This document shows positions 21,572-36,381 of a DNA stretch of 64,000 nucleotides, piece after piece. The translations under genes were made by a program, and so were the position numbers. The notes beneath the pieces are model-generated. The model was not told the origin of the DNA. It did not search any database and worked only from the letters and a program-made list of their open reading frames with translations. Source of the DNA: Haplodiscus bocki (lineage: Eukaryota); the NCBI GenBank assembly GCA_965655095.1, contig OZ296657.1, positions 27,652,001 to 27,716,000 on the forward strand, given 5' to 3'. Each line of letters opens with the position of its first letter. Positions within the stretch are counted from its first letter, which is position 1.

Positions 21572-21744
21572 GTTCGACTTCTCTTTTTTATTAGTCGTGA
21601 ATACATGTGAAAAATCCCACTATTTTTCGAATTATTCTAAACTCATGTTCAAGGACCTCTTGTTTTGAAGAAATGACTTGAGCCTGTTTTTGTAAGAGGG
21701 GCTTTTCATATAAAAGAATGGTCAAATAAGGACTATCTGATATA

Positions 21745-21848
21745 AGTAGTAGTAGTAGTAGTAGTAGTAGATTTAGGCGGCTATAAAGGCAACGGGGGAG
21801 TCTTTTTTACTATTGGACATTCACAACGGTAAATCGATTTGAAACTCT
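21745..21848 (+). repeat. Polinton left TIR with (AGT)8
   Basis: Reverse complement of 36222-36309 with mismatches. Confidence 0.9.
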
Positions 21849-21922
21849 GTGCAAGAGGAGGCATTTCACTCATGTTGGAGGACCATTTCGAGAACTAGAG
21901 AGCTCAAAGCCGGTCGACTTCG

Positions 21923-22183
21923 ATGGCTAAATTTTGCATTATAATGATAAAATTTTTCGCACTTACCTCAATATTAACATTTTGTTTCACGAGTTTTGAT
22001 GAAGCAAATGCTGGACACATTTATAGACCGTACAATCACGGAGACGAGTGCACAGTTGATTACGAAGGTTATTGCTTGAATGGAGGCTCATGCTTGTTTT
22101 CAGTAGATGCAGTAGGTGCTGCATGCTTTTGCCCAGATACGTACGGCGGGGTAAGATGTGAAAAATACGTGTGGTGGACTTGA
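21923..22183 (+). CDS. Secreted single-EGF-domain protein (EGFR-ligand-like), Polinton cargo
   Basis: Signal peptide ending ANA, then C-x7-C-x5-C-x10-C-x1-C-x8-C with GYCL and YxGxRC; no TM; intact ORF. Confidence 0.85.
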   Translation: MAKFCIIMIKFFALTSILTFCFTSFDEANAGHIYRPYNHGDECTVDYEGYCLNGGSCLFSVDAVGAACFCPDTYGGVRCEKYVWWT

Positions 22184-23136
22184 CGTTGTTTTCAAAAGAA
22201 CTCTAACCGACGATCGCCTCACAATGCTTGGAAAAAGGTTACAAGTTAAATGTTCAGTGGATGATTTACGGAACTTGGAAATGAGAGCATTGTGCTACAG
22301 GAAGAATTATAGAAAGACCGAAGAATACTTTTCCGAAACTATGTTCTTGGACTCTGTAGACAAATACGAAAGAAGGGCTTATTTGAAATCCTAGAGGACA
22401 AAATTAAAGTTCCTCGCTTTACATGGTTATTTAAAAACTTGAAGCTATACCCATTGGTGAAAATCATTCAGGAAGCGACACGATTACTTGCTCATCACCG
22501 TGGACTTATAACAAAAGGAGTGCAATGTTCCATTACACATCAATATAAAATACCGAGTCAATTTCAAGCGTTTTGTTTGGCTCTCCGATACCTAATGCAA
22601 AATTATGACGAGTATTGGTTGCTGGAATGCTGATATCACTTTTCTCTATTACAACCAGAAATGAGACCTCTATTACTATTCGAGGAGCTCTGTAACTCCA
22701 TCAACTTATTTTACTTTGGAGAGCCTATCGAAACTCGAACGAAAACAGTCAGTTTGCTTCACATACGAGAGAAAACGTTTGCAGGAATTCATTCATCTTG
22801 TCGTAGTAACAATGAGTTTCATGAAGGTTCTCGTTATTCTATTTTGACAAGTTCGTGCGGTTTGACCTGCGATTTTTTTAATCTCAACAAATTTTATAGA
22901 CGGCAGAAAAAAAAGGTAGGAAAATACTCTAGAGTTCTGTATTATGATTGGTCCACGTCTTGAAAATCCTTCATTCACTGACAAAAATACTTTCCCAAAA
23001 AGATCAGAGTATTGAGCAGTCTTTCGGAAGCTTCAATTTTCTTCCACGATAAGTAATTTTCAGTCGTGCGCCTGAATTTGTCCTAACGCACCCGTTCCCA
23101 AAAAACTCAAACATTCACTTGCGTATTGCTTCCATA

Positions 23137-23610
23137 ATACTCAGTCCAGTATTTGTTGTCATTGACTTTGAGGTGTTTAGACATAAAAGTTACCCCTTTA
23201 TTATAGAGAAAATATCTGTTTGTGGATCAAACTTTCGAGACACATTCTCTTTCGACCTCTTTTCGATGCTCACTTGATTCCTCAAGACTCAGGAAAAACA
23301 TATTCCTGGGTTGCAAAACATTTGCTTGGCATTGACTGGAATGCGGAAACCCATGACTATTCATTCCTAATTACATTTTCTACAAGTTTGAAAGTGAGGT
23401 CTCCAAAACAAATTTTCTACGTAAGAGGAAAACAAAAACGCGTTTTTTGCGCAGATATTCATTCCAAGTAGTCGACTTAGAGATAGTCGGGTGTCCTAAA
23501 GTCACAGATTTCTGTTATTTTATCGACAGTATTTGCTACAACCACAATCATTCGGAATGCTACTTTGACCATTGTTGGGGCAGGAAGGCTGTGTAATACT
23601 ATATTTGGTT
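23137..23610 (+). pseudogene. Polinton accessory DEDD/RNase H-fold exonuclease-like protein, frameshifted
   Basis: VVIDFEVFRHKSYPFIIEKISVCG ... WVAKHLLGIDW ... FYVRGKQK ... DLEIVGCP ... HC. Confidence 0.5.
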
Positions 23611-23611
23611 A

Positions 23612-24103
23612 ATGAGATATAGCAAAATGTCTGCGAGGAACTCAAGCCAAACTCTCAGCTACCAGTCCCCAAATCCGTTTCTGCACCTATCGACATCAAT
23701 TCAACCGATGGCAGTGGAACCAAACAATGACAAGGAGACCACTATTTGCCTGGTGAAGGAGGAGGTATTAGAATCAGCAGGTCCTAACGTTTGCAAGAAA
23801 GCCATCATACAGTTGACACCTGAAGAATTTAATTGTTCAAAAGAAAGTATCAATTCGGTCAACGTTTTGCTAGACTACACTTCTCACCACTTGAAAAACC
23901 ATGTCCAACTGTCGACTCCAAGAACTTGTGAAGAGGCAGAACATTCCACCCTCTACACTACCCACAAATTTCGCCAATCTCATACAATTGACGGAATCGA
24001 TGATCCAAGGTTACCGAAACAGATAACAGAAGGTCTAACTGGTCGAGAAAATGTTTTGGAAGTTATTTTTTCCCAGCCCCCAGAAAATAAGAAAATGGGA
24101 TAA
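23612..24103 (+). CDS. Polinton hypothetical ORF
   Basis: 163-aa open frame between the exonuclease-like remnant and integrase; no recognised motif. Confidence 0.35.
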   Translation: MRYSKMSARNSSQTLSYQSPNPFLHLSTSIQPMAVEPNNDKETTICLVKEEVLESAGPNVCKKAIIQLTPEEFNCSKESINSVNVLLDYTSHHLKNHVQLSTPRTCEEAEHSTLYTTHKFRQSHTIDGIDDPRLPKQITEGLTGRENVLEVIFSQPPENKKMG

Positions 24104-33690: not shown

Positions 33691-33850
33691 AGAACGGTTA
33701 CAGCCTTGAACTATACAAACGTATTTCGAGTTTCATTTCATTTCGATGTTAGACATTGTCTCAAGCTATATGTGATTCAAGGAACACATGCATACACTCA
33801 ACAAAAGGAGCCATTACCCAGTTACCTCTAATCAACTTGTCACATTAAAC

Positions 33851-34837
33851 TCACCCAACCTTGATATCTAGTGTCGGAAAAATCGCCCATAAAATCAGAA
33901 CAAAGTCAAAGACTAGAATCACACGGTGGACGATCCATGGGGGCTCAAAACCGCCGAACTCATCTCCAACTTTTACATGCGGAGCCTGGAACTGGTTCCT
34001 CCACTCAGTGCCACTTAATGTGACAGATGAAAGTTTCTGAAGCGCACTTAACTCATCCTTCCTGTTATGAACAAAAATTCGAATTAACAACCCTGTAATT
34101 GAATTCATTCACATTTGCAAGAAGCTTTCGGCTTCGGGCGAGCGCATCTAATAATGCATTTAAATAATAACAGTGATGTAGACTCGCATTGTCTTCTAAG
34201 ATATAGTCAGTAAAGCCGGCCGTCCCGAGAAGTGTCACACCGATTCTCCCCGCTTGAATACCGGTTACTTTGGCACTCAGCTTCGAAATGATTGAGGATT
34301 GTTGTGGCGACCACAGATTTCACGCAAGATTGTACGATGAACTTCATTGTTGCAGCTCGTCACCCGAAATCCGTTTTTTGGAAGTGACGATTTGGCCTTG
34401 TTAATAGCAAGTTTAGATGCGTGGGCAACATCTTCTCCAAAATGACCTTTTTTTGTCCTCAGGCACTGCTACAAATTTTTGTCTTTTATCACCCAATGGA
34501 ATTATTTTGATTGCTGTACCTTGAATTCGTCCGTTAGCAGCTTACTCCAATGCATGAAGATTATTTATGGGACATTTGCTAGTAAAAATATCATCAATGG
34601 TTTTAATATATGTTTTTTCGACTAACATAGTTTTGATCGTGGTTTAGACGAATTTTCACTCATTTGAATCTTGAGACAAGAGCAGTTGAAACGTTTAGAA
34701 AAGAAAATACAAACCAAATGATTCTGTAAACCAAAAACACCAACAAAGGCTAAAGGCATAATATTAAACCGGTTATCAGACATTGATAAAAGAGCAGCTG
34801 AAACATAGTTAATTGGTAACGATTTTTCCAGCAACAC
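33851..34837 (-). pseudogene. Polinton accessory gene remnant, possible macrodomain
   Basis: IKTIDDIF..HALE*AANGRIQG ... RIGVTLLGTAGF ... IRIFVHN..ELSAL in macrodomain motif order. Confidence 0.35.
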
Positions 34838-36090
34838 ACTAAGTATTCTCGTTAATGCTGAAAGAGTATTCGGTAGCTTAAATTTGCTCTTGTCTAGCAG
34901 CGTTTATTACTACATGTACGTCGCTAGTCTAGCGAACCTGGACAAAAGCAAGAAAGCAAGCTAAAAAAGAAACGAGTGAAAACAATAAACATTCTTTCGA
35001 TTTGTTTATTTTTGTTAATCATTGTTCACCCGGCCCCGTACTTCAAGTGCCAGTTAGATGTTCTTGTTTCGACTTGTTTATAATTTGTTGTTCATTATCA
35101 CCCGTCGCCGCATGGCTAACATCAATTATAAGTGGTTCTAAGCTCTTGAAATCTTTACAATAGCATTCTTGACAAAAGAGATCTTACTTTTAAGCTAAAG
35201 AAGTGTTAAACATTCGAACCGCGAAGCTCAGTCAGCACTGGCACTCTCTTTTTTCCTTTTTTAAACTCTCATCAAATAGAACTCATGTCCCCAAAAACTT
35301 GTGAAGTTATAATTTGTACTCTCGGTGCTCCGATTTGCCAACAATGTAATTGAACATTTTTGTAACCTAATTTTTCAATTCAACATCAAAACATGGATAT
35401 TTCAATTAGAACAGTCCCAAGTGAAACAAAAAGAAAACCTATCTAAAAGAACCGTCCTCGCATCCGAATTATTGAAATAAAATAAAACTCAAAACTCTTG
35501 TCGCCAAATTGGCATTTTTGTCACGGTTTTTTAACTAGATAACGAAGTGATCTAAACCGTATGGCTTCAACATCCAGCTGTTTGTTTCACTAGAAAAGAT
35601 GATAGTCCAGGGTTATATATTGATTGCATTTCGTTTCCTCTATAGAGTTATTAAAATTAGAATTGAGAAATGGAGAAAATATTACACGCGGTTTTTTATA
35701 CCCACTTAGTAAGTATAGTTAGTTTCAGGAAGAAATCCTCATTTTAATAGAAATCACAACAGTCAGTCAACTTCAAAACCTGATCAAAAGTTAATAAAAA
35801 TAATTGCTGCATTCATTCATTAAGTTTAGAAGCAAAACGCATTCTTTAATCATGTAAAAGCAGTTCAGGCGTGAGAAGTGGATAGAATACTGCACGCGGA
35901 TCAATATGCCTGTCTTTTAAATATAATTACTTCCAAGAATAATGTTTCACTTAAAACTAACATTCAATTTTCTTTCTGAAACTTGAAAAGGAACTATTTT
36001 TTGCATCAAAAACATGGCTGGATAAAAGAAGCAAATTACACTTTACTAAAATTACGTCTCTTTAAATAAGTTGGATCAAGTTTTGAACAA

Positions 36091-36177
36091 GTGTCAATGG
36101 CCTAGTGGTTAAGCCTGAGCTGGAGTGCGTTGCTAGCCGGAAGATTGGAAGAGCGAACTCCGATCTCGGAATTTTTT
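36091..36177 (+). ncRNA. tRNA-like Pol III unit (SINE head or VA-RNA-like)
   Basis: A-box tggcctagtgg(ttaag) at 36098, degenerate B-box gagcgaactcc at 36151, T6 at 36172. Confidence 0.4.
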
Positions 36178-36221
36178 CATATTTTGCAGTGTACTAATTA
36201 CAGAATGATGCGAACTGAATT

Positions 36222-36309
36222 AGAGTTTTTGTTAGGATTTCAACCGTTTTGAGTTTCCAATACTACAAAGACTCCCCCGTTGCGCTTATAGCCGCCTAAA
36301 TCTACTATT
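36222..36309 (-). repeat. Polinton right TIR
   Basis: aaagactcccccgttgcgcttatagccgcctaaatctactatt. Confidence 0.9.
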
Positions 36310-36381
36310 GATATAATTGGGTGAATTTTTCAAGTTATATACCACCCTGCGGAAAATAACATGCTACTGATAACTTTGATA

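Follow-up and report, generated by a model that had tools for sequence, protein, structure and literature searches.

A decayed Polinton in an intron of a Rap-like GTPase gene

The window analysed here, a 64,000-nt stretch of the genome of Haplodiscus bocki (contig OZ296657.1, positions 27,652,001 to 27,716,000), by its sequence an acoel, contains a Rap-like GTPase gene with a Polinton in its intron, and this Polinton carries a decayed gene resembling that of the ribosomal protein uS5/RPS2. On the plus strand, exon 1 of the Rap-like gene (21202-21571, ATG at 21307) follows a trans-splice acceptor AG (TTTCAG; 21200-21201), where an mRNA contig bears a spliced leader, and exon 2 with the 3' untranslated region runs from 37851 to 38819 (stop codon at 38300-38302). 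The intron between them (21572-37850; 16,279 bp, gttcga...cag) is in phase 1 and falls inside the Gly of the DTAG motif, and the joined exons give an open frame for a 238-amino acid Ras-family protein with G boxes and the C-terminal CAAX motif CVIL. The Polinton spans 21745-36309 (14,565 bp), has its core genes on the same plus strand as the Rap-like gene, and is bounded by perfectly matching 6-bp target-site duplications, GATATA, at 21739-21744 and 36310-36315. It makes up 89.5% of the intron, with 173 bp separating it from the donor and 1,535 bp from the acceptor; the intron minus the element and one duplication measures 1,708 bp. From left to right, the plus strand of the element holds an EGF-like gene, orphan frames, an unknown gene, and genes for integrase (INT), a probable minor capsid protein (mCP), a small core protein, the major capsid protein (MCP), a protease (PRO) and protein-primed DNA polymerase B (pPolB), with all of the core genes containing stops or frame changes.

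The inverted ends (left, 21745-21848; right, 36222-36309) are short and diverged, matching over 41 nt at 95% identity without gaps and over ~85 nt with gaps, where the score of 102 compares with a maximum of 41 among 100 shuffles. Of the (AGT)2...(ACT)2 end motif, the left end begins with (AGT)x8.7 and the right end has CTACTATT in place of a clean (ACT)2; in the related elements checked for their ends the motif is clean. The insertion is old, judging from the 71-78% identity of the closest Polinton copies in the genome along long stretches and from a nested long terminal repeat (LTR) that is at most 73% identical to its full-length matches; its sense orientation would arise by chance half of the time and calls for no explanation. 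An earlier note on this DNA, made from the sequence alone, had reported both inverted ends, the perfect GATATA duplication, an old element filling about 90% of the intron in sense orientation, a weak donor (gttcga at 21572), the split DTAG motif and two open Rap exons. All of this withstood the follow-up, and the insertion itself is real, although the span of 21739..36315 given for it took in both duplications.

Contigs of four sequencing runs (X1-X4) were placed on the window in 30 bins. Those of X1-X3 were DNA-like, covering 30/30 bins with the element at about the depth of its flanks and with few differences in two samples, which suggests that the element DNA, itself real, is probably fixed. 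The right junction is crossed by contigs of X1 and X2; the left one lies within a skipped repeat and is unbridged among the contigs listed. Contigs of X4 covered exons only, and this coverage, together with a leader and a junction, led us to take X4 as an RNA run. In one of them (record 27; 1,361 nt, depth 35.8) position 21570 is followed directly by 37850, which is equivalent to the predicted 21571/37851 junction, singled out for checking in the earlier note, because a G stands on both sides. At the loose 5' end of this contig are 20 letters equal to the spliced leader published for Symsagittifera roscoffensis (PMC9911081). An upstream exon was considered for these 20 nt and rejected, as they have no match in the window at 3 mismatches and equal the published acoel leader. 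The leader at the 5' end and the junction in the same contig therefore indicate that the Rap-like mRNA is leader trans-spliced and that its intron is removed. Since this spliced contig joins the two Rap exons, the provirus would be read through by the host as part of the pre-mRNA. X4 depth was 0 in 21/21 bins from 22230 to 36215, EGF-like gene included, in this one contig set, which may miss rare transcripts and small RNAs; the depth of 0.38 in the bin before 22230 belongs to the end of exon 1. Expression of cargo from the element, raised in the earlier note, thus finds no support.

The GTPase (21307-38302) is a divergent Rap paralog, in which the effector loop is unlike EKYDPTIEDFY and DTAGM replaces DTAGT. 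A canonical Rap2 is found at another locus of the genome (L037) and has no intron at the DTAG position. The closest named relative of the GTPase is the Rap-2c-like protein XP_075251832.1 of Convolutriloba macropyga, and the diverged effector loop and DTAGM are also present in this ortholog. Within the 90% cluster of XP_075251832.1, one genomic open reading frame (ORF) call, P0184, runs through exon 1 as far as DTAG, past which a short unrelated tail leads to a stop; a second, P0122, begins MEQF, and both are listed with a contig of 276,882 bp. The Gly-Lys reading of the ortholog would fit a canonical gtaag donor. As the ortholog breaks at the same codon, the intron, and with it the split of DTAG, likely predates the Polinton. 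In an ORF call of a 92% identical relative (P0123) the match starts at NVAILLVG, which may mean an extra intron within exon 2. The intron also holds, just outside the element at 36400-37100, a very high-copy repeat with a summed depth in the tens of thousands.

A uS5/RPS2-like gene carried by related Polintons

On the minus strand, the element holds the decayed uS5/RPS2-like gene at ~34065-34663, broken by stops and indels, with approximate limits. The earlier note had placed accessory genes on this strand, and one does lie there, but its uS5 identity was absent from that note, as were the solo LTR and the spliced leader. The frame of a sister copy matches the gene of the window at E 5e-11 and host RPS2 at E 1.5e-8, and host RPS2 alone matches the copy in the window weakly (E 0.18). 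Pfam found no uS5 domain on the window element's own frames, the N-terminal Ribosomal_S5 domain alone in the sister copy (E 0.011), and both Ribosomal_S5 and Ribosomal_S5_C at or above cut-off in minus-strand, right-end ORFs of two related elements. The best PDB matches of the uS5-like ORFs of related elements are eukaryotic RPS2/uS5 proteins (E 3e-16), and the predicted model of one such protein (predicted local distance difference test, pLDDT, 91.6) compares to 40S uS5 with a template modelling (TM) score of 0.82 and a root-mean-square deviation (rmsd) of 1.9. Against the NCBIfam full-length equivalog the uS5-like protein reached 67.2 bits versus a cut-off of 181.65 bits, and the N-terminal arm, present in the window's subfamily, is absent in 10/10 main-clade sequences. 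Because of this score and the missing arm, we file the viral uS5 as a uS5-derived homolog and not as a working ribosomal protein. Of 72 core columns invariant in eukaryotes, the main clade retains 28, each in at least 70% of 10 sequences and chiefly Gly and Pro (14 of 20); its proteins are still basic (pI 9.6-10.6).

A genome search for uS5-like genes listed 150 matches of 262 candidates, which were collapsed by hand to 72 loci after removal of host RPS2, of tandem repeats and of additional pieces of a copy already counted; the capsid reference set comprised 150 scored matches of 5,791 candidates. This revealed 29 loci within 30 kb of a listed Polinton capsid match, compared to 0.43 expected, and in 29/29 of these the uS5-like gene is downstream of the capsid gene and oriented against it, the distance being 6-13 kb in 27 cases. 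The four related elements checked for their ends all have inverted ones with 6-bp duplications, and in three of the four the uS5-like gene lies inside the inverted ends, ~0.6 kb from the right end. One further divergent uS5-like gene (L083) sits 2.3 kb past pPolB on the opposite strand. A protein search of 1.84 billion representatives returned 15 proteins at E<=1e-10; the 10 matches looked up are all ENA records, one of them a cellular RPS2, with several top matches identical to loci of the host genome. No uS5-like relatives appeared in IMG/VR contigs, nor in BFVD at E<=0.001, both being weak negatives, and the evidence for uS5-bearing Polintons is confined to this host genome. Tandem arrays of uS5-like fragments with a period of 2.5-3 kb were seen at C6:2236294-2314958, C7:38829924-38902472 and C2:36545631-36577600, apparently amplified from Polinton right ends. 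A divergent, intron-containing paralog of host RPS2 (L084) resembles the proteins P0263 and P0267.

In a tree of 62 rows, chosen by us from the 150 listed protein matches and the genome loci, the main Polinton uS5-like sequences group together in a single clade (99/96) that falls on the eukaryote side (98/98), and the window's subfamily falls among cellular RPS2 on a long branch. A single origin of all uS5-like sequences is not rejected (approximately unbiased test, AU, p 0.36), with the bootstrap unsettled (0.972). The viral proteins share with cellular eukaryotic uS5/RPS2 the two Pfam domains, the predicted fold and their side of the tree, and are unlike it in that the main clade lacks the N-terminal arm and scores below the NCBIfam cut-off, the window copy being broken besides. 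Identity of the viral proteins to host RPS2 is 33-43%, compared to mostly 55-85% for the cellular eukaryotic sequences compared with it. Between five subfamilies, the proportion of synonymous differences (pS) is mostly 0.7-0.9 (one pair 0.60), near saturation, while that of nonsynonymous differences (pN) is 0.29-0.49 and identity is 33-55%. Omega inside single subfamilies is 0.58-0.88, which post-insertion decay would be expected to give. From the survival of the protein and its predicted fold alongside saturated synonymous sites, we infer purifying selection on uS5 in active Polinton lineages.

Function of the viral uS5 and rival explanations

We consider it probable, as a whole, that a Polinton inserted into an intron likely already present, decayed to a relic that would now be spliced out of the Rap-like mRNA as one cis-intron, and left in this relic a captured but now broken uS5/RPS2 gene, whose counterparts in related Polintons would have been kept under selection, their product likely working outside the ribosome. 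The predicted function of the viral uS5 is that of an RNA-binding or decoy factor. Because the change far exceeds what cellular RPS2 tolerates, we lean, if only a little beyond an even judgement, towards a protein that acts away from the ribosome and binds either RNA or a partner of uS5; replacement of host uS5 within the 40S subunit we hold to be doubtful. The N-terminal arm of cellular uS5 binds a dedicated chaperone. Close to the mRNA entry channel, uS5 is phosphorylated by vaccinia B1 (PMC8887129) and is therefore a known point of viral control. That Polintons captured this core 40S protein, possibly repeatedly, in order to remodel or decoy the host translation machinery is a tentative idea to which we give limited credence.

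Several observations weigh against this picture. X4 comes without an RNA record, its RNA nature being read from the contigs themselves, and a single contig set can miss rare transcripts; the ortholog intron was read from ORF calls and not from genomic DNA. No listed capsid match lies within 30 kb of 43 of the 72 uS5-like loci, one of the four elements checked is without a uS5-like gene, and the fold match may partly reflect familiarity of AlphaFold with uS5, host RPS2 being in the 12-row alignment. The reading frame is lost at one and the same point between the two domains in the window's uS5-like copy and its sister, and their differences by codon position 1/2/3 (27/27/34) are near neutral, with no visible selection in this subfamily; for these two reasons the gene may have been dead early in the window's subfamily.

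In place of acting outside the ribosome, the viral uS5 of active elements could replace host uS5 at the mRNA entry channel and bias ribosomes towards viral mRNAs. Phage bS21 and bL12 do enter ribosomes (PMC6375957), and the action of Vaccinia B1 near the entry channel (PMC8887129) would fit such a strategy. Both uS5 domains and the predicted fold are kept, as are eukaryote-type signature residues and several basic residues, but the identity to host RPS2 is far below that of cellular sequences, and in the main clade the N-terminal arm is absent and 44/72 invariant columns are not retained. uS5 is moreover a core ribosomal protein. The viral ribosomal proteins described so far tend to be exchangeable ones (PMC6375957), and we judge replacement unlikely. 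A further proposal has Polintons carrying the uS5-like genes as neutral passengers, each a processed pseudogene of host RPS2. This would suit the within-subfamily omega of 0.58-0.88, the near-neutral pattern between window and sister copies, and a genome rich in leader-bearing, retrocopy-like sequences. It is very hard to reconcile with synonymous saturation alongside a protein conserved across five subfamilies, with one supported clade (99/96), with the same position and orientation at 29/29 linked loci, and with frames that stay open at ~40% identity to each other.

Returning to the element itself, which we read as a silent relic, the earlier note had suggested that sense read-through by host transcription could express cargo or feed small-RNA pathways, which would give the insertion a function. 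The element would lie inside the pre-mRNA, its short EGF-like gene is open, and a large intronic Polinton remnant in Caenorhabditis elegans changes eri-7 expression (10.1101/2024.01.15.575659). Such a function nevertheless appears improbable given that no X4 contig lies over the element, EGF-like gene included, that the core genes are dead, that poly(A) and donor motifs are no denser in the element than in the rest of the window, and that a frame of 86 codons can stay open by chance. Least credible of all is that the element created the intron or that the locus is misassembled: the donor gttcga is far from consensus and the left junction, where the repeat was skipped, is unbridged by listed contigs, but the ortholog breaks at the same codon, the element stands away from both donor (173 bp) and acceptor (1,535 bp), the right junction is crossed by X1 and X2 contigs, and the two 6-bp duplicates match perfectly.

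With the animal Mavericks/Polintons described in PMC8097293 the element shares inverted ends, the 6-bp duplication, INT, pPolB, MCP and, less surely, the AGT end motif, PRO and the probable mCP. Its size falls within the 12.7-24.6 kb reported there, and it is degraded, like 96% of the vertebrate Maverick loci of that study. It differs from them in having its core genes all on one strand, a deleted packaging ATPase, and EGF-like and uS5-like accessory genes; the string 'ribosom' occurs 0 times in the main text of PMC8097293. The eri-6/7 locus of C. elegans likewise has a large Polinton remnant between host exons (10.1101/2024.01.15.575659), but in that case expression downstream is reduced by the insertion, which also gave rise to an inversion and to trans-splicing, whereas the Haplodiscus exons are colinear and joined.

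Ribosomal proteins encoded by viruses include eL40 of FloV-SA2 (PMC11499249), bS21, bL12 and bL9 of phages and eS30 of FBR-MuSV (PMC6375957), and six ribosomal proteins in phage PhiMa05 (PMC13157829, which also cites a giant virus with three); a further source is PMC13712778. Those of FloV-SA2, phages and FBR-MuSV likewise reflect capture from the host side and are kept under purifying selection, but the carrier here is an integrating animal Polinton of 15-19 kb, and the protein is uS5, which belongs to the core of the 40S subunit and is here truncated and much further diverged. The main texts of PMC11499249, PMC6375957 and PMC13157829 never mention 'uS5' (0 occurrences), and the supplementary table of ten further ribosomal proteins in PMC6375957 could include it. 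No Polinton-borne ribosomal protein was found in the literature on Polintons, ribosomal proteins of eukaryotic viruses, uS5 transfer, adintoviruses and acoel Polintons, mostly in non-subscription journals, and uS5 as Polinton cargo appears new to the literature searched. Where a genome has at least 150 capsid-gene matches, a dead intronic Polinton is nothing unusual, unlike its uS5 cargo. This cargo shows that elements of 15-19 kb can accommodate genes for translation of a kind ascribed to giant viruses and jumbo phages. If Polintons of this acoel do use captured uS5 to remodel or decoy host translation, they would be the smallest eukaryotic DNA viruses known to us that encode a ribosomal protein and a case of viral customisation of ribosomes by protein exchange. 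The conservation of a uS5 homolog across diverged Polinton subfamilies, with natural open frames, makes the question testable with one small gene.

Remaining genes of the element and its neighbours

The genes of the element were traced by tblastn using natural ORFs of related copies; all those that follow are on the plus strand. The EGF-like gene (21923-22183) is open over 86 codons and of secreted type, with a hydrophobic N-terminus and six Cys; it matches PF00008 slightly below cut-off (E 6e-4) and has a homolog in related copies (E 1e-14). A left-end EGF-like gene is conserved across related Polintons and is reminiscent of poxvirus growth factors. Two orphan frames follow (22313-22963), the first weakly matching the ORF of a relative (E 1e-4), and then a conserved unknown gene spread over three frames (23134-23761), for which the exonuclease-like label of the earlier note has no family support in Pfam, NCBIfam or PDB; a phosphatase match (E 0.03) was taken as chance. 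The integrase (24336-25149) is broken into three frames with stops and matches PF00665 above cut-off (E 8e-11). The probable mCP (25151-25998) is also broken; the model for a relative is poor (pLDDT 42), and its match to the mavirus penton (Z 4.5, rmsd 13.7, 180 aligned) is tied with unrelated folds, while a Pfam match of an mCP fragment to Exotox-A_target (E 0.016) was taken as chance. Next come a broken small basic core gene with a GSG motif (26044-26352) and the broken MCP gene (26345-27638). The MCP ORF of a relative has no Pfam match and reached 0.98 in Atlas, where one of the three top clusters is 30% PF21738, double jelly-roll-like, giving the double jelly-roll identity moderate support. 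The adenain-like protease gene (27572-28056) is broken, and the sole three PDB matches of a relative's protease at E<=1 are adenovirus proteases, weak at E 0.33-0.4. The pPolB gene (28574-32730) is broken as well; a relative's pPolB matches PF03175 above cut-off (E 1.5e-14). The gene order of the earlier note therefore stands from EGF and orphans through INT, mCP, GxG core, MCP and PRO to pPolB, with the repeats placed after pPolB amounting to just 2 copies of 15 bp. Pfam applied to 18 six-frame pieces (all plus frames, and the minus frames of the end thirds) gave just rve and a faint EGF.

The element had been called complete, which it is not. In the element no packaging ATPase was found at E<=0.05, and at 24143-24169 a deletion site marks the place where a sister copy has ~1.7 kb with this gene; single DNA contigs run across the site without a gap. 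ATPase matches were present in 2/2 closest sister copies (E 4e-56 and 2e-54), and the ATPase ORF of a relative matches Pox_A32 (E 3e-4). As the ATPase is gone from the window copy and kept in both sisters, this copy is a defective derivative and not an intact Polinton. A ~600-bp insert at 34930-35535, with raised DNA depth, is read as a nested solo LTR because it is absent from sister copy A and because its genomic matches, of which the full-length ones are at most 73% identical, recur as same-strand pairs ~12 kb apart.

No longer relatives of the pPolB fragment in the window were found. The commonest open-frame pPolB family of the genome was rejected as close kin, having 23-31% identity and no capsid references nearby. 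A second kind of pPolB element was seen at L040-L042, with two inverted pPolB genes ~12 kb apart, mirrored neighbours and no capsid-like match to the window. In two related loci (L050:6592-8877 and L054:6569-7702) a long tandem-repeat region, with several frames open, lies between pPolB and the uS5-like gene; it is absent in the window.

Upstream of the Rap-like gene and on the same strand lie an ABCF3-like gene and EDEM2, the three together occupying 16817-38819. One X4 contig ends at 19018, the next covers 19092-21129 and a third begins at 21200, with gaps of ~70 nt between them, and the two downstream ones start at TTTCAG acceptors. The cluster looks like an operon resolved by leader trans-splicing; the word 'operon' occurs 0 times in PMC9911081, and no acoel-focused operon paper turned up in the literature search. 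The best named matches of EDEM2 are from C. macropyga and S. roscoffensis (66-67%). The 22-nt end of the leader has 1,238 exact copies in the genome, compared to 0 for a reversed control, and at 10/10 loci viewed (L017-L026) it is followed by unrelated sequence and never by GT. In two pairs of these loci the sequence past the leader is shared, and a single locus carries two leaders, 92 nt from each other; the genomic copies are likely leader-bearing retrocopies.

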